From the sequence record SRR2962707_5488: a stretch of DNA of 20,000 nucleotides; one strand, given 5' to 3'. The notes beneath the pieces are model-generated. The model did no database searches. It was not told the DNA's origin and worked only from the letters and a program-made list of their open reading frames with translations. The position numbers were made by a program, and so were the translations under genes. Shown here one piece after another: positions 1 to 20,000 of the stretch. How positions within the stretch are numbered: the first letter of the stretch is position 1; each line of letters begins with the position of its first letter.

Positions 1-1055
1 CGGATGCAGGGCTGAAGCCCAGGGACATTGACGGCATGGTGCCGCCGCCCGTCTATACAACGTCGGAGGAATTGGCCGCCAACCTTGGCGTCGATGTGCT
101 GCGATATGCCTCAACGGTCAACATGGGAGGCGCGAGTCCGACCACGGCATTGCAGAATGCCGCCATGGCCGTGGCCTCCGGCGTCTGCGACAACGTACTG
201 GTCACACTCGGCTGGAACGGCTATTCGGCGCTGCGTCCCAAGGCGGGGGTGCCGCCAAGCCGGCCGATGAATATGAACACGCTGACCTCGACCATCCGGG
301 GTTACTATCTGCCCTATGGCGTCCTGTTGCCGGTGCAGATGTATGCCTGGCTCGCGACGCGGCACTCGAAACTTTACAACGTCAGCCCCGAGGCGACGGG
401 TTGGATCGCGATGGCTTGCCGCAAGCATGCCCAACTCAACGACCGCGCCCTGACCTGCGGCCAACCGATGACGATGGATGACTACATGCGGTCGCGCATG
501 GTGTCCTCCCCGTTCCGTTTATTCGATTGCTGTCTCGAAACGGATGGGGCCTGCGCCGTCGTGGTGACGAGCGCCGAACGGGCGAAAGACTTGCCTCACA
601 GGCCGGTCTATATCTCTGGCGCGGCCGAGGGCCATCCTTATCCTGCCGACGATATTCCGTCGCGGCCGGACCCCTTCAAGATCGGTTTGAGTTATGCCGC
701 GCCGCGCGCTTTCTCCATGGCCGGTGTGACGCCGAAGGACATGGACTTTCTGCAGGTTTATGACTGCTTCACCTACGTCGTGCTACTGCAACTCGAAGCA
801 CTGGGCTATTTCGAGCCGGGCGGCGCACTCGATTTCGTCAAGGATGGACAGATCGAACTCGGCGGCAAGTTTCCGCTCAATACGCATGGCGGTCTTTTGA
901 GCGAGGCGCATGTGTGGGGCCTCAATCATGTACTTGAGGCGACGCGCCAATTGCGCGGAGATGCGGGAAAGCGGCAAATTCCGGACGCTGAAATCGGACT
1001 TGTGACCGGATGGGGTGATCTGGGCGATGGCAGCCTCGCGATTTTGAGGAGGTAA
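1..1055 (+). CDS. Thiolase-fold protein (SCP-x/Ltp2-like, probably aldolase-type), 5' end outside the window
   Basis: Frame is open from base 3 ([15 protein letters not shown]...) to TAA at 1055. Motifs [24 protein letters not shown] and [19 protein letters not shown] sits where classical thiolases have the nucleophilic Cys. Directly followed by a DUF35 gene. Confidence 0.88.
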
Positions 1056-1057
1056 AA

Positions 1058-1480
1058 ATGGAAATTCAACAACCGAAATATCCTCAGCCCGCGACTGTCG
1101 ATCCGATCGACGCGGAATTCTGGAAGCTCTGCCAGGACGGCGTCTTGCGTTTTCAACAATGCAGCAGTTGCGGTACATGGCGGTTTCTGCCGCGTTACAT
1201 GTGCGCAAAATGTAGCTCGCCGGATTATGAGTGGAAGGCGAGCAGCGGTCGCGGCCGCATTTTTTCCTGGACGGTGACCTATCAGCCCTTTCATCCGGCT
1301 TTCGCAGGCGACGTACCCTATATAGCTGCGGTCGTGGAATTGGACGAAGGTGTCCGCATGGCGACGCGCTTGCTCGACTGCGACCCGGAGGCGGTGAAAC
1401 TCGACATGCCTGTCGTCCTTGTCTTCAAGGACATCGGCGACGGATTCAAGCTTCCGTGTTTCAAGCCTGCGACGAAATAA
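1058..1480 (+). CDS. DUF35 Zn-ribbon/OB-fold protein (ChsH2 C-terminal-like thiolase partner)
   Basis: CSSC...CAKC zinc ribbon, SGRGRIFSWTV and PYIAAVVELDEGVRM. GAGGAGG RBS just upstream, start 2 nt after the thiolase stop. Confidence 0.92.
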   Translation: MEIQQPKYPQPATVDPIDAEFWKLCQDGVLRFQQCSSCGTWRFLPRYMCAKCSSPDYEWKASSGRGRIFSWTVTYQPFHPAFAGDVPYIAAVVELDEGVRMATRLLDCDPEAVKLDMPVVLVFKDIGDGFKLPCFKPATK

Positions 1481-1518
1481 GACTGAGCCAATCGCCATCG
1501 ACGCATCGGAGATCTGGA

Positions 1519-2712
1519 ATGGATCTGGCATACGGCCCCAAATACGAGGCTTTCCGGGAAGAGGTCAGGGCGTTCCTGACAAAACACAAGGACCAGGCGC
1601 CGAGGGGCCTTGGCGCTGCCGGGCGTCCGTCTCCAGAAGCCTGTTCCTGGCAGCGACAGTTGATTCAGAACGGCTATGCGGCTCGGACGATTCCGAAAGA
1701 CTACGGCGGCTATGGCGCCACGCCTGACATTCTGGAATCGCGCATCATCGCGGAGGAATTCTCCAGTGCTCGTGTGCCTTCTGCGTTGCAGAACCAGGGC
1801 ATCTCCATGCTGGTGCCGACGCTTCTGGAACTTGGCACCGAAGAGCAGAAGAAGAAATGGGTGAAGCCGACGCTTCGCGGCGAGGTGGTCTGGTGTCAGG
1901 GATATTCCGAACCGGGTTCAGGTTCAGACCTCGCCAGCCTTCAGACCAAGGCGACTGTGGATGGCGACGATTTTGTCATCAACGGCCAGAAGATATGGAC
2001 CAGCACTGCGCACGAGGCGGACATGATTTTCTGTCTGGTGCGCACGGAGCCCGATAAACCCAAGCATGAAGGCATTTCTTATCTGATCTTTTCGATGGAG
2101 ACGCCCGGTATCGAAGTCCGTCCGCTCACTACCATGACGGGTCATGCCGAATTCAATGAAGTCTTCTTTACGGATGTGCGCGTACCGAAGACGCAGATCG
2201 TCGGCCAGCGCGGGCAGGGATGGCTCGTCGCCAACGCCACGCTGAAATACGAGCGCGGAATGCTCGGCGACCCGGCCGCCATGGAAACCAGGTTCCAGGC
2301 CCTTGTCGATTTGATGCGCGATGAGACTGTCGACGGGCAGCAGGCCATCGACAATCCGATTTTCCGGGACCGCCTGGTAAGGCTTCAGGCGGAACTTGCC
2401 GCCTTGAAGTTCAATGGGCTTCGGCTCCTGACCAGCGCGAGCAGGGGTGAGTACGCCGGCTTGGCGCGTCTGATCGTGAAGCTTCAATCCTGCGAACTTA
2501 CCCATCAAATATCGGCGCTCGCGATCGACGTCATGGGAGAGTTTGGCGTTCTTTACGACGACAGCCCCTATCTGCGCAGTCACGGCTCATGGCAATGGGG
2601 GTACATGTTTCAGCTTGGGCTCATCATCGGCGGCGGTACGGCGCAGATTCAGAAAAATATTATTTCGGAACGTGGGCTTGGTATGCCGCGCGAACCGAGG
2701 TCGGCAAAATAG
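1519..2712 (+). CDS. Acyl-CoA dehydrogenase, large (alpha) subunit of a heteromeric pair
   Basis: ATG 1519 follows GGAGA (the ORF-track start at 1231 overlaps the upstream gene). Motifs WCQGYSEPGSGSDLASL, NGQKIWTS, FNEVFF, LKYERG, IGGGTAQIQKNIISER. Confidence 0.93.
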   Translation: MDLAYGPKYEAFREEVRAFLTKHKDQAPRGLGAAGRPSPEACSWQRQLIQNGYAARTIPKDYGGYGATPDILESRIIAEEFSSARVPSALQNQGISMLVPTLLELGTEEQKKKWVKPTLRGEVVWCQGYSEPGSGSDLASLQTKATVDGDDFVINGQKIWTSTAHEADMIFCLVRTEPDKPKHEGISYLIFSMETPGIEVRPLTTMTGHAEFNEVFFTDVRVPKTQIVGQRGQGWLVANATLKYERGMLGDPAAMETRFQALVDLMRDETVDGQQAIDNPIFRDRLVRLQAELAALKFNGLRLLTSASRGEYAGLARLIVKLQSCELTHQISALAIDVMGEFGVLYDDSPYLRSHGSWQWGYMFQLGLIIGGGTAQIQKNIISERGLGMPREPRSAK

Positions 2713-2723
2713 GAATTCATCCG

Positions 2724-3809
2724 TTGGAATTTGCATTGTCGGAAGAGCAGCGCCTGTTGCAGGATAGTGTCCGCCGTTTTCTTGAGCAGAACGCGCCGCT
2801 CGACAAGGTGCGCATTGCCGCCGAGAACACGCATACCGTTCAGCGGTCCCTGTGGGCGGGTGCCAGCGAACTGGGCATCCCCGGAATACTTATCCCTGAA
2901 GACTTTGGCGGCATGGGTTTGGGATTTCTCGATGCGGCGATCGTTTACGAGATGATCGGACGGCATGTTGCGCCCCTGCCCTTTGTCGGGGCTACCGTCA
3001 TGGCGCCCCTCGCGCTGATGATCGCAGGCAGCAAGGCTCAACAGGAAAAGTGGCTTCCAAAGATCGCCGCGAGTGAGATTATCGCGGGCGTGGCCATCAC
3101 GGAAAAAGTCGGCATCCGCGAAGATGCGGGCGTGAAAGCCCTGAATGGAAAGCTCACGGGCAAGTCCCTCTTCGTGATCGACTGGGCTGAGGCCGATCTC
3201 TATATCGTGGCCGACAACGACCATGGACTTCATCTCGTTTTGCCCGATGCGAAGGGGTTGTCACGGCGGGAGCTCAACACCATCGACAAGACCCGATCGG
3301 TTGGCGAACTTGTCTTCGATCAGGTTGCGGCCGAGCCGTTACCCCGATCCAGCATCGATGCGGTAGCGCGGATGATAGATGTCGGCAGGGTTATGCTTGC
3401 CGCCGACACTCTCGGCGCGGGTCAGATGATGCTTGAGAAGGCGGTGGCTTATGCGGAGGAGCGCAAGCAGTTCGGCCGTGTGATCGGGTCGTTTCAGGCC
3501 GTGAAGCACCTCTGCGCCGAGATGGCGGCCGCTCTCGAACCATCGCGTTCGCTGGTGTGGTATGCGGCCCATGCGCTGGATGAAGTGCCCGGCGACGCGC
3601 GCCTCATGGCATGTCATGCCAAGAGCCACCTGTCGGAAGTGGGCCGTTTCGTCGCGCGCACCGCAACGGAGGTTCATGGCGGCATGGGCTTCACCGATTT
3701 GCTGGGCCTGCATTACTGGTTCAAGCGGATTGGGCTCGACCGGCAGTTGCTGGGCGGGCCGGAGTTGGTTCGTCTTGAAGCCGCGCGCTTGCAGGGCTGG
3801 GCTGCCTAG
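2724..3809 (+). CDS. Acyl-CoA dehydrogenase, small (beta) subunit of a heteromeric pair
   Basis: TTG start at 2724 after AGGA gives MEFALSEEQRLLQDSVRRFL. Motifs ERKQFGRVIGSFQAVKH and EVHGGMGFT. Lacks the EPGxGSD motif, as is typical of beta subunits. Starts 11 nt after the partner gene. Confidence 0.9.
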   Translation: MEFALSEEQRLLQDSVRRFLEQNAPLDKVRIAAENTHTVQRSLWAGASELGIPGILIPEDFGGMGLGFLDAAIVYEMIGRHVAPLPFVGATVMAPLALMIAGSKAQQEKWLPKIAASEIIAGVAITEKVGIREDAGVKALNGKLTGKSLFVIDWAEADLYIVADNDHGLHLVLPDAKGLSRRELNTIDKTRSVGELVFDQVAAEPLPRSSIDAVARMIDVGRVMLAADTLGAGQMMLEKAVAYAEERKQFGRVIGSFQAVKHLCAEMAAALEPSRSLVWYAAHALDEVPGDARLMACHAKSHLSEVGRFVARTATEVHGGMGFTDLLGLHYWFKRIGLDRQLLGGPELVRLEAARLQGWAA

Positions 3810-3916
3810 ATCGCGACCTGGATATTGGGGAGCATAGATCCAGCTGCCGGTGAGTGTTGCCGCGACTAACAGCGGCGCAGGAGTATTTCCATTGGATCGG
3901 CAACGGGAAGATACGC

Positions 3917-5116
3917 ATGAATATCGACTTCACGCCGGAGGATGAGGCATTTCGCGACGAGGTTCGCGGATTTATCGCGGCGAACCTTCCGCCGGAATGT
4001 GCGAATTCGTCGATCCTGGGCGTGATGACCGACAAAAGTGTAGTCAATCGCTGGCACAAGACGCTTTACGAAAAAGGCTGGGCCGCGCCCGCCTGGCCGG
4101 AGGAGTGTGGCGGTACGGGATGGAACGCGACGCAGCGGTTTATATTCAACGAGGAAACTGCCAGAGCCAATGCACCGCGTTTGATGCCTTTCGGGCTGAA
4201 CATGGTTGGTCCGGTGATCTACACCTTCGGCAACGCCGAACAGAAGAGCCGCCACTTGCAGGGCATACTTTCGGGCGATGTCTGGTGGTGCCAAGGCTAT
4301 TCCGAACCGGGCGCCGGTTCCGATCTCGCTTCGCTTAAAACGACGGCGGTGCGCGACGGCGACCATTATGTCGTCAACGGCCAGAAAATATGGACGTCCT
4401 ATGCGCATGAGGCCGACTGGATTTTCTGTTTGGTGCGCACCGAGCAGAGCGTCAAGCGGCAGGAAGGGATTTCCTTCCTGCTCATCGACATGACGACGCC
4501 CGGTATCGAAGTGCGTCCGATTATCTCGATCGCCGGTCTGCATCATCTCAACGAAGTGTTTTTTACCGACGTCAAGGTGCCGGTACAAAATCTCATAGGC
4601 GAGGAAAACAAAGGCTGGACCTACGCCAAATACCTGCTTGTCCATGAAAGAACGAGTATCGGCGGCGTCTCCGAGTCCAAGAAGAAGGCTGCGCATATCA
4701 GGGCGATTGCCCGAGCGGAGCGGAACGCGGATGGGGAAGCGCTGATAGACGATCCCGCGTTCCAGCGCAAACTCGCCGGGATCGAAGTCAAGCTCACCAG
4801 TCTCGAATACATGAATCTGCGGATTCTCGCCGACGCGGCAGCAGGAAAGGCGGCCGGACCGCAATCGTCCCTGCTGAAGATCGTCGGTAGCGAGGTTCAG
4901 CAAGCGTTGGGCGAACTCGCCGTCGAAGCCGTCGGCTATTATATCGAGCCGTTCGAGCAAGGAGTTCCGCCTGCCGACGCCAATGTATGGAATATAGGTC
5001 CGGCCCATGCCAGGAACGTGTGGGCGGATTATGGCTACGGCCGCGCCGCGAGCATTTATGGTGGATCGAATGAGATTCAACGCGACGTCATCGCCAAGGT
5101 GATCCTTAATCTTTGA
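3917..5116 (+). CDS. Acyl-CoA dehydrogenase, PimC-like (pimeloyl-CoA dehydrogenase large subunit family), copy 1
   Basis: ATG 3917 (MNIDFTPEDEAFRDEVR), 399 aa. Motifs MVGPVIYTFG, WWCQGYSEPGAGSDLASLKT, QEGISFLLIDM, SIYGGSNEIQRDVIAK resemble recalled PimC. Confidence 0.88.
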   Translation: MNIDFTPEDEAFRDEVRGFIAANLPPECANSSILGVMTDKSVVNRWHKTLYEKGWAAPAWPEECGGTGWNATQRFIFNEETARANAPRLMPFGLNMVGPVIYTFGNAEQKSRHLQGILSGDVWWCQGYSEPGAGSDLASLKTTAVRDGDHYVVNGQKIWTSYAHEADWIFCLVRTEQSVKRQEGISFLLIDMTTPGIEVRPIISIAGLHHLNEVFFTDVKVPVQNLIGEENKGWTYAKYLLVHERTSIGGVSESKKKAAHIRAIARAERNADGEALIDDPAFQRKLAGIEVKLTSLEYMNLRILADAAAGKAAGPQSSLLKIVGSEVQQALGELAVEAVGYYIEPFEQGVPPADANVWNIGPAHARNVWADYGYGRAASIYGGSNEIQRDVIAKVILNL

Positions 5117-5137
5117 AAGCGGGGGACAATTCGGTTT

Positions 5138-5168
5138 TTGCCCGTTCGGATAAATTCATTATAATGAA
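5138..5168 (+). promoter_or_regulatory. Candidate sigma70 promoter with an overlapping perfect palindrome
   Basis: TTGCCC (5138-5143), 16 nt, TATAAT (5160-5165). The 14-bp perfect palindrome TTCATTATAATGAA (5155-5168) covers the -10 box in an AT-rich intergenic gap. Confidence 0.6.
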
Positions 5169-5207
5169 AATGTAAACACCCGGATCGTTGCCGCGAAAGG
5201 TCAGTAG

Positions 5208-6407
5208 ATGGATATCGAGCTTACGAAAGAGGACGAAGCCTTCCGTGCGGAAGTCCGTCGGTTCATTTCGGAAAAATTGCCCATGGAGCTCGCGGAGAGA
5301 GACACAGTGGGCGCGTCTGGCGAGCGCGGTGCGCTCAGGCGCTGGCAGAAAGATCTCCACGAGAAAGGCTGGGTAGCGGTCAATTGGCCCAAGGAGTACG
5401 GCGGCACTGGATGGACGCCGATGCAGAAGTTCCTTTTCAACGAGGAAATGGCGTTGGCCAATGCACCGCGGCTTTCTCCGTTCGGCCTGTCCATGGTGGG
5501 ACCGGTGATCTACACCTTCGGTAACGAAGCGCAGAAAAAGCAGCACCTGGAGGGCATTCTTACCGGCGATGTCTGGTGGTGTCAGGGTTATTCGGAGCCG
5601 GGATCCGGATCGGACCTCGCTTCGCTGAAGACCAAGGCCCTGCGTCAGGGCGACGATTACATCGTCAACGGCCAGAAAATCTGGACGTCCTATGCCCATG
5701 AAGCCGATTGGATATTCTGTCTCGTGCGAACGGATGAGACCGTCAAACAGCAGGAAGGCATCTCGTTCCTTCTGATCGACATGAAGACGCCCGGCATCGA
5801 GGTGAAGCCGATCATTTCCATCGACGGCCTGCATCACTTGAACGAAGTTTTTTTCACTGATGTCAAGGTGCCGGTGACGAACCGCATCGGCGAAGAAAAC
5901 AAGGGCTGGACCTACGCCAAGTTCTTGCTCGTCAACGAGCGCACTGGCATTGCAGGTGTTCCAGAGTCCAAGCGCAAGATCGCGCACCTCAGAAAAATCG
6001 CGAGACAGGAAAGGCTTGGCGATGGCGCGGCGCTGGCGGACGAACTGTCATTCATGACGAGGCTCTCCGAAATCGAGGTGAAGCTCACGGGTCTCGAATA
6101 TACCAATCTGAGGATCGTTGCGGAGGAAGTGGCAGGCCGTCCCGCTGGTCCCTCTTCCTCGACCTTGAAGATTGTAGGGACCGAAGTTCAGCAAGCGTTG
6201 TCGGAGCTTGCCGTCGAAGCCGCCGCCTTCTACGCCATGCCGTTCCAGAGGGAACATTTGACTGGAATTGCCAATGAAGCACCCGTCGGGCCCGCCTATG
6301 CGGTGAGCGTGACAAGCGCCTATAATTTCGGTCGCGCCGCTTCGATTTATGGCGGTTCGAACGAAATCCAGCGCAATGTCATCGCAAAGGCCGTTCTGGG
6401 ACTTTGA
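5208..6407 (+). CDS. Acyl-CoA dehydrogenase, PimC-like, copy 2
   Basis: 399 aa with the same motifs as copy 1, plus LLVNERTGIAG and SIYGGSNEIQRNVIAKAVLGL. Confidence 0.9.
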   Translation: MDIELTKEDEAFRAEVRRFISEKLPMELAERDTVGASGERGALRRWQKDLHEKGWVAVNWPKEYGGTGWTPMQKFLFNEEMALANAPRLSPFGLSMVGPVIYTFGNEAQKKQHLEGILTGDVWWCQGYSEPGSGSDLASLKTKALRQGDDYIVNGQKIWTSYAHEADWIFCLVRTDETVKQQEGISFLLIDMKTPGIEVKPIISIDGLHHLNEVFFTDVKVPVTNRIGEENKGWTYAKFLLVNERTGIAGVPESKRKIAHLRKIARQERLGDGAALADELSFMTRLSEIEVKLTGLEYTNLRIVAEEVAGRPAGPSSSTLKIVGTEVQQALSELAVEAAAFYAMPFQREHLTGIANEAPVGPAYAVSVTSAYNFGRAASIYGGSNEIQRNVIAKAVLGL

Positions 6408-6426
6408 CGGACAATCCGGACATGCG

Positions 6427-6457
6427 AAGGGCCGCATCTTGGATGCGGCCCTTTTTT
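6427..6457 (+). terminator. Rho-independent terminator
   Basis: AAGGGCCGCATC-TTG-GATGCGGCCCTT stem-loop running into a T tract, about 20 nt after the stop at 6407. Confidence 0.88.
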
Positions 6458-6482
6458 ATGTCAGTCCACCAATCCTTCGGGC

Positions 6483-6645
6483 TCACGCCACCTGCGAATA
6501 ACGCTTCAACTGGTGATCGAAGGTGCCGAACTGGGTATCGATCAACGTCAGCCGCTTGAAGTAGTGACCGACATTGAGCTCGTCGGTCATGCCCATGCCC
6601 ACGTGAAGCTGCACGGCCTGCGGGCCAACGAAGCGGCCGTCCTGA
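6483..6645 (-). pseudogene. 3' remnant of a PimD-like acyl-CoA dehydrogenase small subunit
   Basis: Minus-strand translation GRFVGPQAVQLHVGMGMTDELNVGHYFKRLTLIDTQFGTFDHQLKRYSQVA* is a typical ACAD beta-subunit C-terminus (QLHGGMGMTDEL..GHYFKR). Sequence upstream of it shows no ACAD similarity. Confidence 0.82.
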
Positions 6646-6812
6646 CGCCGCCCCGCGTTTTCAATCTTTACCGTCCCCAAACCATTTCTCCCTCGCCCAT
6701 TCGACCTGTTTTTCCGATCGGCCGTAGTCAGTGCTTCCGCCTTTCGTAGACGGGCTGGACGTTTCCCCCATGAATGCGCTAAGCAATAAGAAATCATGAT
6801 AAGGGAATAGGG

Positions 6813-7988: not shown

Positions 7989-8377
7989 GCACCGATCAGA
8001 AAAGCAAGATCAACCTTGTCGTCAATTCCGAGAGCAAGCCCTACTGGGAAGGCGCTGCCAAGGGGCAACTCCTGATCCGGACCTGCAATACCTGCGGCAA
8101 GGTGCACCACTATCCGCGGACTATTTGCCCGCATTGTTTCTCGGATGACACGGCGTTTGTGGAGGCTTCGGGCAATGGCGTGATCTACAGCTATTCGGTC
8201 ACGCGGCAAGCCAAGCCGCCTTATGTCATCGCCTATGTTACGCTCGACGAAGGAGTCACGATGCTCACGAATATCGTCGACTGCGAAATCGACAAGATTC
8301 GGATCGGGCAGAAAGTCAGGGTTAAATTCTCCGGGGCCGATGACGGATACGCACTGCCGGTGTTCACATCCGCATGA
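7985..8377 (+). CDS. DUF35 Zn-ribbon/OB-fold protein
   Basis: CNTC...CPHC, ASGNGVIYSYSV and PYVIAYVTLDEGVTMLTNIVDC. Translationally coupled to the thiolase. Confidence 0.92.
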   Translation: MSTDQKSKINLVVNSESKPYWEGAAKGQLLIRTCNTCGKVHHYPRTICPHCFSDDTAFVEASGNGVIYSYSVTRQAKPPYVIAYVTLDEGVTMLTNIVDCEIDKIRIGQKVRVKFSGADDGYALPVFTSA

Positions 8378-12880: not shown

Positions 12881-12963
12881 GACGGCGTCTCCATTGCGTT
12901 TCCAGAAGCCTGCGAATGCGTGACATAAGGGATGCCGGTTGGCCACCTTGCTCCTGTCGATTC

Positions 12964-12992
12964 ATTATAAGCATATTTCCGCAGCTTGTCAG
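12964..12992 (-). promoter_or_regulatory. Candidate sigma70 promoter for cyp153-maoC
   Basis: Minus strand CTGACA (12992-12987), 17 nt, TATAAT (12969-12964), about 85 nt upstream of the cyp153 start. Confidence 0.65.
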
Positions 12993-13091
12993 GTTGCATT
13001 CTTCGGGCAGCAATCCGGGTTGGCAGGAACTTCCCGAATAGTCGGTCACACGAATGTTACCGACCTTCCACCATCGGCTGCCTGTGGAATA

Positions 13092-13419
13092 TCAGGTCGG
13101 CAGGGCGACGGCGATCTCGCGCAGTTTGAACTTCTGGACCTTGCCGCTCGGCACCATGGCGTTCGCCGACGTTTCCGCCCGCTTCGGCAGATTTCCACGG
13201 TGAGCTCTGCGAGGCCGATGGCGACGCGATCGAGGGTCTTTCCGAAGTCGCGATAGTTGAGGCGGGCTTCCCTGGCTGTCGTTGAATTAAAATCGGCGAC
13301 CGCTGTCTTGTCCGGCACTTTAGCGATACAGCGGTCCAGATAGTCGGGGAGTTTGGCTGGCCAGAATCCGCCGATATTCATCGCCTTCACCTGCTCCTTG
13401 GGCAGCCTGTCAGGGATGT
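13092..13419 (-). pseudogene. aliA: Internally deleted cyclohexanecarboxylate-CoA ligase-like gene (aliA-like)
   Basis: N-terminal ligase segment (LPKEQVKAMNIGGFWP..PDYLDRCIAKVPDKTAVAD...RLNYRDFGKTLDRVAIGLAEL) joins near 13192, in another frame, to the C-terminal motif LPKRAE...PSGKVQKFKLREIAVALPT* (TGA at 13094-13092). The whole AMP-binding core is missing. Confidence 0.75.
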
Positions 13420-14284
13420 TTAAGTGATCTTCGGCTGGAAATAATCTGGCCGCCCGGGAGGCCACGGATCGCCCCAAAGCTACTCGCCGCCATCGACTGT
13501 AAGTACCTCGCCGGTGATGAATTTACCGCTGGGCGCTGCGAGGTAGGCGACCGCCTCTGCGATATCATGAGCGTCCCCAACGCGCAGCATGGGTTTCGCT
13601 TCTGGATATGTCTTCAGGCCTTCGGGAGGATATTGCATGAAGCCGCTCGTCTCGCAAACACCGGGCGCGACGCAGTTGACGCGGATGCGGTGCTGCGCCC
13701 ATTCGACCGCGACCGATTTGAAGAGGTAGATAACGCCAGCGCGCCGCGCAGGTGTGCGCGATGCCGGGCATTCCGCGCCAGATGTCGGCGACGATATTCA
13801 CGATCGAACCGGGGCTTTTTCTTTCGACCCATTGCTGCGCGGCGCTTTGCATCATGTACCAGGAACCGTTGAGGTTCGTGTCGATGACGGCATTCCATCC
13901 CTTGACCTTGAAGTCCAGGGCCATTTGCGGAAACTGGCCGCCGGCGTTGTTTACGAGAACGTCGAGCGCGCCGAACCTGTTCCAGACATCGTCGACGAAA
14001 TGTTTGACCTGATCAGGATCCCGTATGGTCAGCGAGGCGCTGAAAACGCGAGCACCCATTCTTTCCAGAAGCGCGACCGTCGCGGCAAGCCTTTCTTCGT
14101 TGCGTCCGCATATAGCGACGTTCGCGCCCAGTCGTGCAAAGAGGCAGGCTATGGCCTTGCCGAAGCCGCTTCCGCCACCGGAAACCACTACCGTTTTTCC
14201 GGAGAAGAGATCTGCGCGATAGACCGTAGGCAGAGCTTTCAGTTCATCATCGGAAAAACCGAAATGGGTGTTTTGGGCTTCCAT
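13420..14284 (-). pseudogene. SDR (trans-2-enoyl-CoA / 2,4-dienoyl-CoA reductase-like) with a frameshift and a nonsense codon
   Basis: SGGGSGFG, NNAGGQF and GMPGIAHTCAAR, then a frameshift near 13740. It continues as AGVIYLFKSVAVEWAQHRIRVNCVAPG...FITGEVLTVDGGE*LWGDPWPPGRPDYFQPKIT*, with in-frame TAG at 13482-13480 and the likely original stop at 13422-13420. Confidence 0.85.
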
Positions 14285-14309
14285 GTGCGTCGTCCCTCAA
14301 AAACTTCCG

Positions 14310-14945
14310 TCACGCAACAGTTTCGTCTTCACTGCTTCGTGCCGTTTCGTCCATTCCGATTCCGCTGAACAGCATTAGACACATATGGTCTGCCATCGTC
14401 TGTATGGACGTCCTGCCCGGCTGGTACCATTCAACCGACCAGTTGAGCGCACCCATGAGCAGCATGCGCACGAGACCAAGGTCGATGTCGCTGCGCAGCG
14501 CTCTCGACTTCTGAGCTTTGGCAAGTATGCGCCGCCAGAGTTCGGCGTAGGCGTCACGCAATTTGATGTGGCGTCGCCGCACGTCTTCGGGGATCTGTCC
14601 GAAGATGCGAATATTCGCGGATGTATAGTCGTCGAGTTTCAGCAGCGTGGTGAGATGTGCTTCGACGGCAGCACGAATTCGGTCGCGGTGCGATGAACCT
14701 GGGGGCAGGCACTCTTGGCTTTCCTCGACAGCTTCGTGAACCCGCCTCATGCCAATGTCCAGAACTTCTTCGAGAAGCTCGTCCTTCGAACCGAAATGGT
14801 AATAGAGGCTTCCCGCCTGCATATCGGCGGCTCTGGCGATTTCGATCAAGGTGGTCGCTGCGTAGCCTTTTTGACGAAACATCTTTGCGGCGGCGTCCAG
14901 TATTCTCGCGCGGCTTATGTCGGATTTACTCTGCTCGGTCGTCAC
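14310..14945 (-). CDS. TetR/AcrR family regulator (KstR2-like C-terminal domain)
   Basis: GTG start after GGAG. HTH RILDAAAKMFRQKGYAATTLIEIARAADMQAGSLYYHFGSKDELL and C-terminal GALNWSVEWY. Divergent from badH. Confidence 0.93.
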   Translation of the reverse strand: MTTEQSKSDISRARILDAAAKMFRQKGYAATTLIEIARAADMQAGSLYYHFGSKDELLEEVLDIGMRRVHEAVEESQECLPPGSSHRDRIRAAVEAHLTTLLKLDDYTSANIRIFGQIPEDVRRRHIKLRDAYAELWRRILAKAQKSRALRSDIDLGLVRMLLMGALNWSVEWYQPGRTSIQTMADHMCLMLFSGIGMDETARSSEDETVA

Positions 14946-14986
14946 GAATGCTCCATCAAGGCTTGCTTGGCGACAATGGTCTAAAA

Positions 14987-15041
14987 TCTAACATGCGTTC
15001 GAAACATATTGCACCCCATTTAAAATCGAATTAGTTTTAGA
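14987..15041. promoter_or_regulatory. Divergent promoter region with two candidate TetR operators
   Basis: Imperfect palindromes TCTAAC-ATGC-GTTCGA (14987-15002) and TCGAAT-TAGT-TTTAGA (15026-15041). A plus-strand TTGCAC (15009-15014), 17 nt, TAGTTT (15032-15037) promoter overlaps the second site. Confidence 0.55.
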
Positions 15042-15111
15042 AAAAAGTACCGCCGTTGCCATGACATAGTGAACTTATGTCTGAAGCGTCGCAGTGAGGG
15101 AGGAGGAAAAC

Positions 15112-15873
15112 ATGCGAGGACTCGATCTGAAACCGGTCATCGTCACCGGCGGCGCGAGCGGTATCGGAAAAGCAATTGCACTGAGGCTTGGCGAGGAAGG
15201 TGCCAAAGTTGCCATCTTCGACATGAACGAGAAGGGTGCCGAGGCCACCGCTGAAGCAATTCGTAAAAAGAGCGGTGCAGCTTGGGCTTATAAGGTCGAT
15301 ATCATCGACTATGCGGCCGTAGCGAGGACAGTCGACGCGTTTGAAGAAGCTGCTGGTCCGGTTTATGGGCTGGTGAACAATGCCGGATGGGACGAGGCAA
15401 GACCCTTTATCCAGACAGAGCCCGATTTCTGGAAAAAAGTGATCGACATCAATCTGTACGGGCCGCTTAACCTCACTCATGTCGTTGCACGCAAGCTTGC
15501 GGAGCAAGGTGCCGGCCGGATCGTCAGCATCTCATCGGATGCGGGTCGTGTTGGCTCGTCTGGCGAGGCGGTTTATTCCGCGGCCAAGGGCGGCGTCATC
15601 GCCTTCATGAAGACGATGGCGCGAGAATTCGCCAAAAAGGGCATCACGTTTAACACGATATGTCCGGGTCCGACGGACACGCCGCTGCTCGCATCCGTGG
15701 ACGCATCGGGCGGCGGACGTCTGACCGAGGCGCTCACCAAGGCGATCCCGATGCGCCGGTTGGCGCAGCCGGACGATTATCCGGGCATGGTCGCATTTTT
15801 TCTGAGCGACGATGCGAGTTTCATCACTGGCCAGACGATCAGCGTCTCGGGCGGTCTCTCCATGCACGGCTAA
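15112..15873 (+). CDS. badH: 2-hydroxycyclohexanecarboxyl-CoA dehydrogenase (SDR)
   Basis: ATG 15112 after GGAGGAGG. NNAGWD, SDAGRVGSSGEAVYSAAKGG, CPGPTDTPLL and ITGQTISVSGGLSMHG match BadH. Position before badI supports the call. Confidence 0.85.
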   Translation: MRGLDLKPVIVTGGASGIGKAIALRLGEEGAKVAIFDMNEKGAEATAEAIRKKSGAAWAYKVDIIDYAAVARTVDAFEEAAGPVYGLVNNAGWDEARPFIQTEPDFWKKVIDINLYGPLNLTHVVARKLAEQGAGRIVSISSDAGRVGSSGEAVYSAAKGGVIAFMKTMAREFAKKGITFNTICPGPTDTPLLASVDASGGGRLTEALTKAIPMRRLAQPDDYPGMVAFFLSDDASFITGQTISVSGGLSMHG

Positions 15874-15884
15874 CGAGGATTCCC

Positions 15885-16676
15885 ATGGACTACGAAGACA
15901 TTCTTTACGAAGAGAAAAATGGCGTCGCGACCATTACGATCAACCGTCCGAGGGTCTATAACGCGTTCCGCCCCCGCACCTGCGTTGAACTGATCGATGC
16001 TTTCCTGAAAGCGGGCTGGAACGAAGAAATCGGCGCGATTGTATTGACCGGGGCGGGCAACAAGGCGTTTTGCACCGGCGGCGATCAATCTGATCACGAT
16101 GGCGCCTATGGCGACGGCGAGACGCGCGGAACCATCGGCATGCCGGTCGAGGAACTGCACACGGTCATACGCGACGTGCCGAAACCAGTGATCGCCAAGG
16201 TGCGCGGTTATGCCATCGGTGGCGGCAATGTGCTGGCGACATTGTGCGACATGACGATTGCGGGCGAGAGCGCAGTCTTCGGACAGGTGGGCCCCAAGAT
16301 GGGCTCCGTCGATCCGGGCTTTGGTACCGCCTATCTCGCCCGCGTGGTCGGGGAGAAGAAGGCGCGCGAAATCTGGTACATGTGCCGGCGTTACCCGGCG
16401 CGCGAGGCGCTGGCGATGGGTCTCGTCAATGCGGTCGTTCCCGACGACAAGCTGGATGAGGAAGTGGACGCCTGGTGCGCCGAGCTTGTGGAGCGCAGCC
16501 CGACGGCGATTGCGATCGCCAAGAAATCGTTCAACGCCGACAGCGACAATATTCGCGGCATTGGCGGTCTCGGCATGCAGGCGCTCCGCCTCTACTACAA
16601 CTCGGCGGAGTCGAAAGAGGGCGTCAATGCGCTCAACGAAAAGCGCAAGCCGGAATTCCGCAAGCATATGAAATAG
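15885..16676 (+). CDS. badI: 2-ketocyclohexanecarboxyl-CoA hydrolase (MenB-like crotonase)
   Basis: ATG 15885 after GAGGA. AFCTGGDQS, PVEELH..IRDVPKPVIA, GQVGPKMGSVDPGFGT and KKAREIWYMCRRY are BadI signatures. Confidence 0.92.
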   Translation: MDYEDILYEEKNGVATITINRPRVYNAFRPRTCVELIDAFLKAGWNEEIGAIVLTGAGNKAFCTGGDQSDHDGAYGDGETRGTIGMPVEELHTVIRDVPKPVIAKVRGYAIGGGNVLATLCDMTIAGESAVFGQVGPKMGSVDPGFGTAYLARVVGEKKAREIWYMCRRYPAREALAMGLVNAVVPDDKLDEEVDAWCAELVERSPTAIAIAKKSFNADSDNIRGIGGLGMQALRLYYNSAESKEGVNALNEKRKPEFRKHMK

Positions 16677-16684
16677 GTGGCATC

Positions 16685-17842
16685 TTGGACTTTGCATTCA
16701 CGTCCGACCAGGAAGCCATTCGCGACACCGCGGCACGATTTGCGCGTGAGCGGCTTGCGCCCGGCTACAGGGCGCGCGAGATCGTCGGAAAGATCGACCG
16801 TGCGCTCATCCGGGAGATGGGCGAACTGGGTCTGATCGGCGCCGACCTGCCCGAAGAGCTTGGTGCGCCCGGTCTCGATAGTGTCACGACCGGCATTATT
16901 ATCGAGGAAATATCGCGCGGCGACATTAGCGTCGGTTATGTCCAGCTCCTTGGCTCGCTTATGGGATCGATCGTCGCCGCGCATGCAAGACCTGAAGTCG
17001 CCGATGAAATCGTTCCGCGGATTTGCTCGGGCGAGGCGATCGTCGCGCTCGGCCTGACGGAGCCGCGAGGCGGCTCCGACGCGGCGCATCTGCAGACGAA
17101 GGCGCGCTCCGCCGGTGACGGCTACGTCCTGTCGGGGGAAAAAACCTCGATCTCGATGGCCGAACAGGCCGATCACATTCTTGTGCTCGCGCGCACGGAT
17201 GAAAACAATCCCGGTGCCGGCGGCGTCTCGGCCTTTCTCGCGCCGCTCGACGCGCCCGGCATCACGTGTTCGAGTTTCGACGATGTGGGTTCGAAGGCCG
17301 TTGGCCGCGGCTCGGTATTCTTCGACAATGTGAAGGTACCGGCGCGGCTTATGGTCGGCACGAAGGGAGAGGGCTTCAGGCAGGTGATGCAGGGCTTCGA
17401 CTATTCCCGTGCGCTGATCGGCCTGCAATGTCTGGCTCCCGCCTTCGCATCGCTGGAAGAAACCTGGAAATATGTGACCGAGCGCGTAGCCTTCGGAAAT
17501 CCGCTGGCTAAATATCAGGGCGTCACGGAACCGCTGGCCGAAGCTCAGACGTTGCTCGAGGCGGCGCGTCTGCTTTGCTACAAGACGCTTTGGCTTCGCG
17601 ACAATGATTTGCCGCACACCGCCGAAGCCGCGATGTGCAAATGGTGGGCGCCCAAGACGGCTTTCCAGGTCATCCACCGTTGCCTGCTCACGCACGGACA
17701 TGGCGGTTACAGCACTGATCTGCCCCATCAGCAGAGATTACGCGATGTGATGGGGCTGCAGATCGGCGACGGTACAGAACAAATTCAGAAGATGATCATT
17801 TCGCGCGAAAAAGTCGGTCGGATTGCCGTGCCTTATGCGTGA
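16685..17842 (+). CDS. aliB: Cyclohexanecarboxyl-CoA dehydrogenase
   Basis: TTG start at 16685 after AGGTGG. LTEPRGGSDAA, GEKTSIS, VMQGFDYSRALIGLQC, AAMCKWWAPK, CLLTHGHGGYS and RDVMGLQIGDGT match AliB/BadJ. Confidence 0.9.
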   Translation: MDFAFTSDQEAIRDTAARFARERLAPGYRAREIVGKIDRALIREMGELGLIGADLPEELGAPGLDSVTTGIIIEEISRGDISVGYVQLLGSLMGSIVAAHARPEVADEIVPRICSGEAIVALGLTEPRGGSDAAHLQTKARSAGDGYVLSGEKTSISMAEQADHILVLARTDENNPGAGGVSAFLAPLDAPGITCSSFDDVGSKAVGRGSVFFDNVKVPARLMVGTKGEGFRQVMQGFDYSRALIGLQCLAPAFASLEETWKYVTERVAFGNPLAKYQGVTEPLAEAQTLLEAARLLCYKTLWLRDNDLPHTAEAAMCKWWAPKTAFQVIHRCLLTHGHGGYSTDLPHQQRLRDVMGLQIGDGTEQIQKMIISREKVGRIAVPYA

Positions 17843-17851
17843 GGGAGTCAC

Positions 17852-18640
17852 ATGACAAGCGCCACAGAAGCTCCGGTTCAGATCGAAATACGAGACGGGA
17901 TCGGAATCGTGGCGCTCAACAGGCCTGACAAGTTCAATTGCCTCTCATCGGCCGTCATGACCGGCCTCCACGAGGCTCTTGCAAGGTTCGAGGACGACAG
18001 GAAGGTTCGTGCCGTTCTGTTGCTCGGGCGTGGAGAGCATTTCTGCACCGGCGCCGATCTCGACGAGGTACTCGACGCCCGCACGGAGCGGGGCCAGCTG
18101 GGCGCGTTTATCACGGGCGGTCATCTCGTTCTGCGCCGTCTTGAAGTCTCGCCTCTGCCGATTGTTGCCGCGGTGAACGGTCTGTGTCTTGCGGGCGGGC
18201 TTGAATTGATGATGGCGTGTGACGTGGTTTTTGCCGGTCAGTCAGCGCAGGTGGGATGCCAGCATGCTCGTTACGGTCTCGTGCCGGGTTGGGGAGGCAC
18301 GCAGCGCCTCGCGCGCATCGTCGGTTCGCGGCGTGCCCTTGATCTGATGTTCAGCGGCCGATGGCTCAAGGCGGATGAGGCGCTGGCTTGGGGGCTTGTG
18401 AACAATGTCGTTGACGACGGCGCGCTGGTCGGAGAGGCGGAAGCCTATTGCGCCGATCTCTCCAAAAAGAATCCGGAAGGCCTTGCCGCGATGAAGCAGC
18501 TTTGCAGGAACGGGCTCGATGGATCGCTCCAGGAAGGTCTGGATATGGAACAGAGCGTCGTCGTAGACGCGCTGATGAGCGAAAATGTTTCGGAAGGTCT
18601 GGCGGCGTTCCGGGAGCGCCGGGAACCATTATTCCGCTAG
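17852..18640 (+). CDS. Enoyl-CoA hydratase/isomerase (crotonase) in the BadK position
   Basis: LNRPDKFN, FCTGADL, AAVNGLCLAGGLEL and GLVPGWGGTQRL. GAGGGAG RBS. Confidence 0.88.
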   Translation: MTSATEAPVQIEIRDGIGIVALNRPDKFNCLSSAVMTGLHEALARFEDDRKVRAVLLLGRGEHFCTGADLDEVLDARTERGQLGAFITGGHLVLRRLEVSPLPIVAAVNGLCLAGGLELMMACDVVFAGQSAQVGCQHARYGLVPGWGGTQRLARIVGSRRALDLMFSGRWLKADEALAWGLVNNVVDDGALVGEAEAYCADLSKKNPEGLAAMKQLCRNGLDGSLQEGLDMEQSVVVDALMSENVSEGLAAFRERREPLFR

Positions 18641-18678
18641 TGGATAATCAAGTAGACATCGTCGGGAGACGCGCGATC

Positions 18679-19830
18679 GTGAAACACGAAGCCCAGATCG
18701 AACAGCTGCGAAAGATTTTCGGCTATCTCGACGCGGGTGAGACCGCGATGGGCGATGCCGTGTATCATCATCATGTCAGCGACTACACCAGTGCGGACCA
18801 GGCCAGCCGAGAGCGGGAGGTGCTGTTCCGAGATGAGCCGCTTCTGATCGGGTTGAGCTGCGAATTGCCCAATCCCGGCGACTATGTAACCGACGATTTT
18901 TCAGGCGTGCCGGTCCTGGCGGTGCGGGATGAAGCGGGGCAGCTCAATGCTTTCATTAATGTCTGCCGCCACCGCGGCGCGCGCGTCGCGTCGGGCTGCG
19001 GCAGCGGCAAGACCGTGTTCAGTTGTCCCTACCACGCATGGACCTACGACCGGAGCGGCAGGCTGAGGTCGATACCGTTCGAGCGGGGCTTCGAGAGCGT
19101 CGACAAAACGAGTAACGGCTTGCGGTCTCTGCCGGTGGTGGAGAAATACGGCATGATCTGGGTCATGCCGACGCCCGGCGGGTCAATCGACATCGACAGC
19201 CACCTTGCTGGAATGGCGGACGATCTCGCCGCGTTTGGTCTTGCGTGCTACAGCCACCACGAGACGCGCGTACTCCGGGCCCGCCTCAATTGGAAGCTCG
19301 TGATCGACACGTTTCTCGAAACCTACCATCTGAGCACACTGCACAAGAACACGATCGCGCCGATCCTGCACTCGAACCTCGGCACGTTCGACGGCATGGC
19401 ACGAAATCTGCGCATGATTGGCGCCCGCAAGACGATCGATGCGTTGCGCCAGAGACCCGAAAGCGAGTGGGATCTGATTCGCCACTCCGCCCTCGTATAC
19501 GTGCTCTTTCCGAATACGGTCTTCATCATGCAGGGCGATCATCTGGAGACGTGGCGGGTTTATCCGGGCGACAGCGTGGATGAATCGAAAATGCACGTCT
19601 CTCTCTATACGCCCGAACCCGCCGTCACAGACAAGGCCAGAAAGTACTGGACCAAAAACATGGACTTGCTGATGGCGACGGTGCAGCAGGAGGATTTTCC
19701 GCTGGCGGAAAATATCCAGCGCGATTTTCACTCGGGCGCACAAGATTTTGTGACTTTCGGTGCCAACGAGCCGGCTCTCGCGCATTTCCACAAATCGGTC
19801 ATGAAAACGCTTGGTATTGACGCCGTGTGA
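18679..19830 (+). CDS. Rieske non-heme iron oxygenase alpha subunit
   Basis: GTG at 18679 after GGGAGA. Rieske ligands CRHRG...CPYHAW, NWKLVIDTFLETYHLSTLH (Fe-binding His pair) and QEDF. Confidence 0.92.
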   Translation: MKHEAQIEQLRKIFGYLDAGETAMGDAVYHHHVSDYTSADQASREREVLFRDEPLLIGLSCELPNPGDYVTDDFSGVPVLAVRDEAGQLNAFINVCRHRGARVASGCGSGKTVFSCPYHAWTYDRSGRLRSIPFERGFESVDKTSNGLRSLPVVEKYGMIWVMPTPGGSIDIDSHLAGMADDLAAFGLACYSHHETRVLRARLNWKLVIDTFLETYHLSTLHKNTIAPILHSNLGTFDGMARNLRMIGARKTIDALRQRPESEWDLIRHSALVYVLFPNTVFIMQGDHLETWRVYPGDSVDESKMHVSLYTPEPAVTDKARKYWTKNMDLLMATVQQEDFPLAENIQRDFHSGAQDFVTFGANEPALAHFHKSVMKTLGIDAV

Positions 19831-19834
19831 AGCC

Positions 19835-20000
19835 GGCAATCAGACAAGATGGGCGACAGGGTTGTCATGTGGTACGTCCCTGGCAATCGGGACGGGGAGG
19901 CGATCGACGAGCCGAACCGCTTCATCATCGATCGTCTAAGGCCGCGTCAACATCTCTCCTTCGGCTTCGGCATCGCTGCGTCGGCAACCGGCTGGCGGAA
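19835..20000 (+). pseudogene. cyp153: Degraded 3' fragment of a second CYP153 P450 (runs off the window)
   Basis: Reads [41 protein letters not shown], frameshift, CVGNRLAE. Collinear with 11923-11753 of the intact gene. A 4-nt deletion (ATC CAC CGC TGC to ATC GC TGC) hits the heme motif, and there is no 5' part. Confidence 0.88.

Follow-up and report, generated by a model that had tools for sequence, protein, structure and literature searches.

A composite catabolic island of a Parvibaculum-type alphaproteobacterium with a possible role in the breakdown of alkyl-substituted alicyclic compounds

Gene clusters of the bad-ali type, and their clustering with the aab set for dicarboxylate beta-oxidation, have already been described (PMC9795900). 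For another group of enzymes, the DUF35-dependent retro-aldolases Ltp2-ChsH2 and Sal-Shy of steroid side chains, the catalytic base is the Tyr of a YDHF motif in TcLtp2 and of a YDCY motif in CtSal; Cys304 of CtSal is essential, and its C304S variant is inactive (PMC12329534). In Comamonas testosteroni KF-1, 3-(4-sulfophenyl)butyrate gives rise to 4-sulfoacetophenone, which a Baeyer-Villiger monooxygenase (BVMO) turns into an ester that is then cleaved by an esterase (PMC3746432). Here we describe a stretch of 20,000 nucleotides from sequence record SRR2962707_5488 (below, the window, meaning the whole of this stretch), in which a bad/ali row stands in one island with a CYP153-family cytochrome P450 and two thiolase-fold/DUF35 gene pairs. 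A search of open-access papers and bioRxiv, with subscription journals mostly outside it, returned no description of a cluster of CYP153, Cys-less thiolase-fold protein, DUF35 and BVMO, or of the fusion of such a cluster with bad/ali. What we attribute to PMC12329534, PMC3746432, PMC3368416, PMC8751089, PMC10710301 and bioRxiv 10.1101/2020.04.08.032540 refers to excerpts of these sources.

The window (20 kb, 55-62% G+C, nearly all coding) is best explained as the larger part of a composite catabolic island of about 30 kb in a Parvibaculum-type alphaproteobacterium, composed of two modules of different history. Module 1 combines the CYP153 with genes for the processing of side chains, and module 2 is the bad/ali row, whose model scores support its reading as a near-equivalog set for the ring opening of cyclohexanecarboxyl-CoA. 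As to function, we give a probability of roughly 0.45 to the proposal that the island serves the breakdown of alkyl-substituted alicyclic compounds, that is, n-alkyl-cycloalkanes and naphthenic-type cycloalkyl-alkanoic acids. The gene identities, active-site substitutions, synteny and gene decay reported below were read from the sequences themselves.

Conservation and composition of the island

Gene families were assigned by Pfam and NCBIfam scans of all long open reading frames (ORFs) in the window, with start codons refined afterwards. The acyl-CoA ligase served as synteny anchor in a scan with one genome per species, and the proteins of the window and of the flanks of its closest genome, G001 (94-95% DNA identity to the window, spread over two contigs), were mapped by tblastn onto the best 80 of 146 confirmed loci. 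Ligases at 85-96% protein identity were found in Parvibaculum, Tepidicaulis and Parvibaculaceae, and those at 64-68% in Hyphomonas, Henriciella, Sphingopyxis, Sphingorhabdus, Parasphingorhabdus, Qipengyuania and Pacificimonas; the groups compared were 29 Parvibaculaceae-type loci and 44 loci from other families. Seven loci (L041-L047) hold a ligase paralogue, 70-73% identical, in another context that has only distant matches to an acyl-CoA dehydrogenase (ACAD) and a short-chain dehydrogenase/reductase (SDR) and is free of CYP153, aldolase and BVMO homologues.

Throughout the 44 loci of other families the genes follow one order, with CYP153 on the minus strand and then, on the plus strand, GntR, a FabK-like reductase, thlA, DUF35A, acad1, acad2, the ligase and the BVMO. 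This nine-gene core (cyp153, gntR, nmo for the FabK-like reductase, thlA, duf35A, acad1, acad2, lig and bvmo) is complete in 40 of them, the remaining four being cut by contig ends, and its order and content are kept across several families at 57-78% protein identity. Since the arrangement recurs in many related genomes, it is not a product of chance, and its distribution is best explained if module 1 is old and widespread in Alphaproteobacteria. At a threshold of 40% identity, badH, badI and aliB were found in none of the 44 loci, so that the CYP153/side-chain module is independent of Bad/Ali ring opening. An alpha/beta hydrolase follows the BVMO in L067, the sole other-family locus scanned with Pfam.

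Downstream of the region matching the window, G001 continues with a P450 remnant, echB, an alpha/beta hydrolase, GntR, the reductase, the BVMO, a further CYP153 and a transposase. This BVMO is almost identical (1176 bits over 543 residues) to PDB 6JDK, which we take to be a Parvibaculum lavamentivorans BVMO. A P. lavamentivorans enzyme, BVMOParvi, oxidised cyclohexanone in whole cells (PMC8751089), and the title of a cited article speaks of a BVMO from P. lavamentivorans that acts on cyclic ketones. Module 1 inside the window would consist of the CYP153 as terminal hydroxylase, the ligase, a steroid-type alpha/beta ACAD pair, hydratases, the thiolase-fold/DUF35 pairs and an SDR, with two further ACADs in this genus, and just outside the window it would extend to a crotonase, the alpha/beta hydrolase, GntR, the FabK-like enoyl reductase, the BVMO and another CYP153.

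Among the loci compared, a TetR-bad/ali-Rieske block lies inside the core in Parvibaculaceae only. In 15 of the 29 loci of this family, aliA, sdr2 and tetR on the minus strand, then badH, badI, aliB and the genes that follow them, are set between CYP153 and echB; the other 14 loci lack the block (five), end at CYP153 (three), have another gene order (three) or have no CYP153 (three). The five loci without the block read thlB, DUF35B, ligase, sdr1, maoC, CYP153, echB, hydrolase, GntR, reductase and BVMO, with maoC through the hydrolase on the minus strand. In G011, a complete genome of the same family, badI, aliB, ech, the Rieske gene and a CYP153 lie on one strand; that CYP153 is full length, 78% identical to the window's, and because it directly follows the Rieske gene, the intact block can be read as badH-badI-aliB-ech-Rieske-CYP153. 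A first-pass annotation had put the window forward as a candidate for one assembled pathway and had proposed a search for such co-occurrence. That search did find bad/ali beside CYP153 and side-chain genes in the 15 loci, and G011 has a bad row running into a full-length CYP153; the idea of one pathway keeps this adjacency and the near-equivalog bad/ali row, but not a unity of origin, as all 44 other-family cores do without bad genes.

The features of the window are as follows.

3-1055, plus: thlA, thiolase-fold, Ltp2-like (Pfam Thiolase_C_1, 141.8 bits); 5' end cut by the window start
1058-1480, plus: DUF35A, zinc-ribbon/OB partner of thlA (Pfam OB_ChsH2_C 85.7 bits, zf-ChsH2 45.3 bits)
1519-2712, plus: acad1, alpha-type subunit of a heteromeric ACAD (all three ACAD domains)
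2724-3809, plus: acad2, beta-type ACAD subunit (ACAD N- and C-terminal domains only; no middle-domain match)
3917-5116, plus: acad3, PimC-large-like ACAD (pimC_large 433.4 bits, cut-off 623.85)
5208-6407, plus: acad4, PimC-large-like ACAD, paralogue of acad3 (pimC_large 456.1 bits, cut-off 623.85)
6426-6459, plus: GC hairpin with a T run behind it, terminator-like, following acad4 (by eye)
6483-6640, minus: 3' remnant of an ACAD, a deletion scar (frame ends like an ACAD C-terminus, by eye)
6813-7988, plus: thlB, thiolase-fold without catalytic cysteines (NCBIfam PRK08142 723 bits, cut-off 462)
7985-8377, plus: DUF35B, partner of thlB, its start overlapping the thlB stop (Pfam OB_ChsH2_C 70.4 bits, zf-ChsH2 51.7 bits)
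8530-10140, plus: acyl-CoA ligase (PRK07798 700.3 bits, cut-off 543)
10200-10952, plus: sdr1, classical SDR (adh_short_C2 230 bits; ChcB1 model 241.5 bits, cut-off 400)
11057-11524, minus: MaoC-like hot-dog protein, downstream of CYP153 (MaoC_dehydratas 29.3 bits, cut-off 27; FAS1_DH_region 31.5 bits)
11615-12880, minus: CYP153-family P450 (PDB 7ANT 645 bits; CYP153A7, 3RWL, 613 bits)
13089-13477, minus: remnant of aliA, cyclohexanecarboxylate-CoA ligase (TIGR03208 model positions 8-76 only)
13480-14284, minus: sdr2, 2,4-dienoyl-CoA-reductase-like SDR, frameshifted (by comparison with the intact forms of G001 and L018)
14310-14945, minus: TetR-family regulator, divergent from badH (TetR_N 69.8 bits, TetR_C_24 75.1 bits)
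15112-15873, plus: badH-like 2-hydroxycyclohexanecarboxyl-CoA dehydrogenase (TIGR03206, the best model, 326.1 bits, cut-off 431.2)
15885-16676, plus: badI-like 2-ketocyclohexanecarboxyl-CoA hydrolase (TIGR03210 456.3 bits, cut-off 467.6; MenB model 313-342 bits)
16685-17842, plus: aliB-like cyclohexanecarboxyl-CoA dehydrogenase (TIGR03207 556 bits, cut-off 575.35)
17852-18640, plus: crotonase, BadK candidate by position only (ECH_1 194 bits; best NCBIfam model EchA19, 204 bits, cut-off 400)
18748-19830, plus: alpha subunit of a Rieske non-haem-iron oxygenase, no beta subunit (Pfam Rieske and Ring_hydroxyl_A)
about 19840-20000, plus: cyp153c, C-terminal remnant of a second CYP153, running off the window (tblastn with the window's CYP153)

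The gene content given in the first-pass annotation, namely CYP153, a CoA ligase, five ACADs, two thiolase-fold/DUF35 pairs, a MaoC protein and badH-badI-aliB-crotonase, was borne out at family level by Pfam and NCBIfam. To that list our scans add the TetR regulator, the Rieske alpha subunit and four remnants (aliA, sdr2, cyp153c and the ACAD 3' end). An Rfam scan of the window at gathering thresholds gave no match, and no pair of inverted repeats was found in the tetR-badH spacer (14930-15110). A 25-kb contig from X2, a DNA run of a separate study, covers 2625-20000, differing from the window in 125 letters and by three gaps of one base. Contigs of a groundwater metatranscriptome match all 30 bins of the window at 93-99% likeness, although contigs from an RNA library may stem from DNA and show neither transcription nor its level or strand; contigs of an oil-sands metatranscriptome match 17 of the 30 bins and none of the last six (16009-20000), a pattern that carries no inference on expression or habitat.

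Of 401 genomes sampled from the class, 44 encode a BadI-like protein (E <= 1e-60). G011 combines a 98% identical copy with a 74% identical paralogue, in two other genomes from the family a 72% copy is the only one, and the nearest matches outside the family reach 80-82%. The second BadI paralogue (71-74%) lies elsewhere in Parvibaculaceae genomes, at L123 (C1:1249000-1268900 of G011) and L127 (in G196), where a 26-29% alpha/beta-hydrolase match is the only other island gene detected beside it; it may represent an older bad locus of the family or a MenB-like enzyme. A solved 'cyclohexanecarboxyl-CoA dehydrogenase', 7XP7, was considered as a close relative of AliB and failed at E 1e-60, which only generic short-chain ACADs passed. 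For the Rieske alpha subunit the best PDB relative is the carnitine monooxygenase CntA (96 bits), and the protein resembles oxygenases of the CntA/GbcA type, not KshA. In G004 (L126, 7274-8341), which belongs to another family, a 60% identical Rieske homologue adjoins aliB and badI. We know of no role for a Rieske oxygenase in any described cyclohexanecarboxylate pathway.

Several observations concern the mobility of the region. A phage-type integrase lies upstream of the island at L018:2360-3745, and a DDE transposase lies at its far end at L009:289-1143 (contig C99 of G001), which hints that the island is prone to rearrangement. Nine loci (L016-L019, L021, L027, L029, L031 and L032) carry a BenAB-like Rieske dioxygenase (alpha and beta subunits) and a PdxA-family gene between sdr1 and maoC; the alpha subunit scores 591 bits to the benzoate dioxygenase model, and the insert, at L018:12514-15542, is missing from the window.

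Thiolase-fold proteins, dehydrogenases and the P450

The best solved relative of ThlA is 6OK1_A (224.5 bits), and the best solved relatives of ThlB are 4U4E, 9MYR and 6OK1. The Cys of CASG in 7YVY, an entry deposited as acetyl-CoA acetyltransferase, is replaced by Gly in both proteins, the nucleophile site of ThlA reading GGAS in alignment with GGGA of 6OK1. Opposite the HDAF of 7YVY, which BbsB shares in the same alignments, ThlA has YDCF and ThlB has YDSF. These motifs are invariant: all 42 ThlA orthologues have YDCF and GGAS, all 27 ThlB orthologues have YDSF and GGSS, and neither protein has the CxSG Cys or the first-position His of HDCF/HDAF by which canonical SCP-2/archaeal-type thiolases are recognised. 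At the position of the catalytic Tyr in YDxF/Y (Tyr294 of TcLtp2, Tyr302 of CtSal), a Tyr is found in ThlA, ThlB and all orthologues examined. The numbering of the 6OK1 alignment places Tyr294 in YDHF, and Tyr344, as given for TcLtp2, and the motif of TbSLP is YDCF where SCP-2 thiolases have HDCF (PMC12329534). As second catalytic residue ThlA has the Cys of YDCF and ThlB a Ser, and both have His at the position of Tyr344. Pfam identifies a stand-alone DUF35 gene directly 3' of each thl gene.

On these motifs both thiolase-fold/DUF35 pairs are most likely DUF35-dependent retro-aldolases of the Ltp2/Sal type, and we conclude that the window, as judged from its predicted proteins, encodes no canonical thiolase. 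Side-chain beta-oxidation, which the first-pass annotation had ascribed to this gene set, could therefore not be carried out by the window alone, as its thiolase-fold proteins are without the thiolase nucleophile. The re-annotation of widespread 'thiolases' and 'lipid-transfer proteins' as probable aldolases would stand even if the substrate proved to be isoprenoid and not alicyclic.

Five intact ACADs are present, acad1-acad4 and the aliB-like gene, among which only acad1 and acad2 form an adjoining large/small pair. Their best PDB matches, 6WY8_B (176 bits) and 4X28_A for acad1 and 6WY8_A for acad2, include the two partner chains of one heteromeric ACAD entry, and we take 6WY8 and 4X28 to be steroid-type alpha2beta2 ACADs. 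Among NCBIfam models, acad1 reaches 253 bits with pimC_large (cut-off 623.85), and the best models for acad2, both below cut-off, are IpdE2 (144 bits) and pimD_small (129 bits, cut-off 652.7). The genes acad3 and acad4 share about 71-73% DNA identity. L016 and L017 have about 7.25 kb more between acad4 and thlB than the window, where this segment is missing at about 6639-6643 and has left only the last codons of a minus-strand ACAD at 6483-6640. In L016 and L017 this segment holds a minus-strand ACAD, an SDR, a ligase, a CoA-transferase family III gene, another ACAD and a crotonase. The CoA-transferase gene was considered as an alpha-methylacyl-CoA racemase, a candidate that we dropped because its best models were formyl-CoA and succinate-glutarate CoA-transferases. 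Part of the spacer (6496-6618) matches two other contigs of G001 at 79-88%.

The P450 at 11615-12880 is by its scores a firm member of the CYP153 family, with 613-645 bits to solved CYP153 entries against about 200-260 for CYP125 and at most 260 for CYP124. No adjacent ferredoxin or ferredoxin-reductase gene is found among the ORFs of the window. On contigs C177, C99, C60, C109, C166, C173 and C3 of G001, the window gene has eight or more CYP153-like matches (68-81% DNA identity), which fits the 'at least nine' P450 genes of P. lavamentivorans DS-1, a genome also credited with at least 40 ACADs, at least 31 enoyl-CoA hydratases and at least 20 acyl-CoA synthetases (PMC3368416). The best solved relatives of sdr1 are Rv2002, R-specific alcohol dehydrogenases and 3alpha/20beta-hydroxysteroid dehydrogenases, with cyclohexanol dehydrogenase at 160 bits, and the protein, labelled a CpnA-like alcohol dehydrogenase in the first-pass annotation, is a classical SDR and likely a secondary-alcohol dehydrogenase. 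The MaoC-like protein has weak Pfam support and no NCBIfam match at 1e-10; by eye it is devoid of what we take to be the Asp and His of the hydratase-2 motif, and it may be a non-catalytic hot-dog partner.

A proposed pathway and its rivals

Naphthenic acids and alkyl-cycloalkanes are persistent and toxic in oil and in process water from oil sands. Their resistance to beta-oxidation is, by the textbook explanation, due to a fully substituted beta carbon; such a tertiary carbon blocks the beta-oxidation of naphthenic acids, and cyclohexylacetic acid is not directly beta-oxidised (PMC10710301). Our search of the open-access literature found no genes assigned to the cleavage by which such a carbon would be circumvented in alicyclic acids. 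A Parvibaculum genome was one of the two with the highest coverage in a naphthenic-acid-degrading community (bioRxiv 10.1101/2020.04.08.032540).

In the pathway that we propose, of which every substrate and every reaction is a prediction, the CYP153 would hydroxylate the end of the alkyl chain, oxidation of the alcohol and aldehyde followed by the ligase would yield a CoA ester, and housekeeping beta-oxidation would shorten the chain. Odd side chains would end as cyclohexanecarboxyl-CoA and enter module 2, in which AliB would desaturate the ring, the crotonase in the place of BadK would hydrate it, BadH would oxidise the alcohol and BadI would open the ring to pimeloyl-CoA. Even side chains would end as cycloalkylacetyl-CoA and take an aldolase route, which could start from any acyl-CoA with a fully substituted beta carbon, be it a ring carbon or a branch point. 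There the ACAD pair and a hydratase would form a tertiary 3-hydroxyacyl-CoA. Since a tertiary alcohol cannot be oxidised, this product would be split by the aldolase/DUF35 pair into acetyl-CoA and a ketone, which the BVMO would turn into a lactone or ester for opening by the hydrolase. An Arthrobacter is said to degrade cyclohexylacetate by way of 1-hydroxycyclohexylacetyl-CoA and cyclohexanone.

A more specific version, which we hold tentatively and consider rather unlikely as a whole, is that the nine-gene core comprises the genes that remove an acetyl unit where the beta carbon is a ring carbon, by way of 1-hydroxycycloalkylacetyl-CoA to acetyl-CoA and a cycloalkanone and on to a lactone, and that Parvibaculaceae fused this core with the Bad/Ali-Rieske-CYP153 block so that the odd and even series are both mineralised from one island. 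The combination of core and bad/ali block may let bacteria degrade ring acids derived from oil. If the Cys-less thiolase-fold/DUF35 pairs are bypass aldolases, the core would mark this capacity in Hyphomonas, Sphingopyxis, Parvibaculum and their relatives, steroid-type aldolase chemistry would extend to a non-steroid use on hydrocarbons, and bioremediation strains, as well as the conversion of cycloalkyl feedstocks to lactones or dicarboxylates, could draw on a defined gene set.

A number of observations weigh against a role of the island in alicyclic degradation, beginning with the block itself. BadI, AliB and BadH all score under their equivalog cut-offs, though each has its model at the top by a wide margin, and even the intact AliA orthologue of L018 stays just short (784.1 bits, cut-off 792.3). 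Relative to L018 and L022, aliA has a 1.31-kb internal deletion with its junction at about 13192-13200, which is present in G001 and X2 as well; 13 related loci retain an intact gene. The frame of sdr2 is broken by the loss of two bases (GC) at 13743, as compared with G001; its intact 304-aa form occurs in G001 and L018. The remnant cyp153c is about 324 codons short at its 5' end and frameshifted (residues 325-376 are what the window's CYP153 matches there by tblastn, and the frame changes inside), and the G001 copy has an in-frame stop. The X2 contig is identical to the window at the aliA junction and at 13743, and because this independent DNA run shows the same state, the lesions of aliA and sdr2 are not errors of one assembly. 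The genes badH, badI, aliB, crotonase and Rieske are intact and 94-99% identical to those of close relatives. With aliA, sdr2 and cyp153c as pseudogenes, the block here can only receive CoA esters from other enzymes; the loss of aliA and of the block's own CYP153 is compatible with a block fed from upstream and equally with plain decay.

Other points against the alicyclic role concern chemistry and physiology. The chemistry of ThlB is uncertain, since it has Ser where CtSal needs Cys and the corresponding CtSal variant is inactive. ORF and family scans of the window gave no canonical thiolase, no evident 3-hydroxyacyl-CoA dehydrogenase, no aldehyde dehydrogenase and no P450 redox partners. Module 1 lacks bad genes not only in all 44 loci of other families but also in five Parvibaculaceae loci, and its adjacency to the block could therefore be an insertion without function. 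In the growth data excerpted for DS-1, this strain did not grow on cyclohexanone or C6, C8 and C12 cycloalkanes, nor on camphor, geraniol, citronellol, linalool, menthol or eucalyptol, and neither alkyl-cycloalkanes nor cyclohexanecarboxylate are among the substrates named there (PMC3368416). Finally, the logic of aldolase and BVMO fits methyl ketones formed from 3-methyl-branched acids equally well.

This last point leads to the main alternative, which we consider unlikely and in which module 1 degrades 3-methyl-branched, isoprenoid-type alkanes or acids (phytane, phytol, phytanate) and the bad/ali block is an unrelated insertion in a recombination hot spot. Here, after chain-end oxidation by CYP153 and hydration past the 3-methyl block, a retro-aldol cleavage would yield a methyl ketone, which Baeyer-Villiger oxidation would turn into an acetate ester for an esterase. 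The completeness of the core, without bad genes, in 40 of the 44 loci, whose genera are mostly marine or aquatic, agrees with this proposal, as do the several deletion and insertion scars in the island and the integrase and transposase near it in relatives. Arguing the other way, the solved proteins most closely related to ThlA and to the ACAD pair process side chains borne by alicyclic rings, if we are right in assigning a steroid role to 6WY8 and 4X28, and the same-strand CYP153 that follows the bad row in G011 suggests a functional tie of CYP153 to ring opening. The KF-1 precedent shows the chemistry at work on a methyl ketone (PMC3746432), and the failure of DS-1 on cyclohexanone and cycloalkanes also suits the isoprenoid proposal, but the same excerpts report no growth on the 3-methyl-branched citronellol and geraniol (PMC3368416), and the reported activity of the BVMO of this genus is with cyclic ketones (PMC8751089). 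That there is no dedicated pathway, and that generic lipid or alkane beta-oxidation paralogues stand by chance beside a bad/ali operon, seems improbable to us: the DS-1 paralogue counts (PMC3368416) and the CYP153-like matches of G001 make such paralogues plentiful, but a nine-gene order kept in 40 of 44 loci, in several families and at 57-78% protein identity, and Cys-less motifs that are invariant in the orthologues, speak against it.

Alkyl-chain shortening in sec-alkyl-aryl xenobiotics (linear alkylbenzenesulfonates, LAS, and alkylbenzenes), the hallmark activity of P. lavamentivorans, is in our judgement decidedly improbable as the role of the island. Parvibaculum does start LAS degradation by omega-oxygenation and chain shortening (PMC3746432, PMC3368416), and relatives carry the BenAB-like dioxygenase and PdxA-like gene inside the island. 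That insert is missing from the window, however, the core is kept in genera not known for LAS degradation, and DS-1 excretes sulfophenylcarboxylates uncleaved (PMC3746432). A cluster for sterol or bile-acid side chains, which we hold to be very improbable, would account for the closest solved homologues, Ltp2 (6OK1) and the heteromeric ACADs (6WY8, 4X28), for the likeness of sdr1 to hydroxysteroid dehydrogenases and for the 475 bits of the neighbouring BVMO to steroid monooxygenase. We rejected it on the identity of the P450, which is CYP153 (613-645 bits) and not CYP125 (about 200-260 bits), on the absence of KshA_C from all four Parvibaculaceae genomes scanned, and on HsaD, for which the best score was 299 bits against a cut-off of 400 and none passed in the four; the CntA/GbcA-type Rieske protein of the window points the same way.

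Comparison with described systems

With the steroid side-chain retro-aldolases Ltp2-ChsH2 and Sal-Shy, in both of which the partner is a DUF35 protein, ThlA and ThlB share the thiolase fold, the DUF35 partner, the absence of a nucleophilic Cys and the Tyr that heads the xDxF motif, the YDCF of ThlA being that of TbSLP and close to the YDCY of CtSal. They differ in that DUF35 is stand-alone and not fused to a MaoC hydratase, in the His at the Tyr344 position of Ltp2 and in the Ser of ThlB at the Cys/His position. Their context is also different, being one of CYP153 and BVMO and not of steroid-nucleus genes.

The resemblance to PimCD of the R. palustris pim operon is distant. The first-pass annotation had listed two PimC-like genes and had ended its route in the oxidation of pimeloyl-CoA by PimCD. 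It is true that pimC_large is the best model for acad1, acad3 and acad4 and that acad2 matches pimD_small, but these are not extra genes, being already counted among the five ACADs, and none of their scores comes near its cut-off. A small-subunit gene is missing beside acad3 and acad4, two of the three large-subunit-like ACADs, and there are no equivalents of pimA, pimB or pimF here, so the PimCD step finds no support. As for the P450, the window's CYP153 resembles those of class I CYP153A operons by score (CYP153A7, 3RWL, and 7ANT, as listed above) but differs in its setting, without adjoining redox partners and among MaoC-like and CoA-ester-processing genes.

The degradation of 3-(4-sulfophenyl)butyrate by KF-1 follows the same logic as proposed for the island, with the release of two carbons, a ketone, a Baeyer-Villiger oxidation and the hydrolysis of an ester. 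Organism and genes are different, and whereas the ketone-releasing enzyme is unnamed in the excerpts on KF-1 (PMC3746432), the island has a candidate in the aldolase/DUF35 pair beside the ligase and ACADs.

The bad-ali clusters of Rhodopseudomonas palustris and Aromatoleum sp. CIB (PMC9795900) are matched by the clustered badH, badI, aliB and crotonase of the window, with aliA present in relatives, and a divergent repressor gene is common to both; the described pathway does not depend on oxygen, and Aromatoleum sp. CIB employs it under aerobic conditions (PMC9795900). In the window, however, aliA has been deleted in this lineage, a pimelyl-CoA module of the aab type, including a true thiolase, is absent, and the regulator is of the TetR family, whereas the MarR-type BadR is reported for Gram-negative bacteria (PMC9795900). 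The gene order here is badH-badI-aliB-ech, with a Rieske gene and a CYP153 appended. With these two additional genes and its TetR control, the block is a variant of bad/ali.

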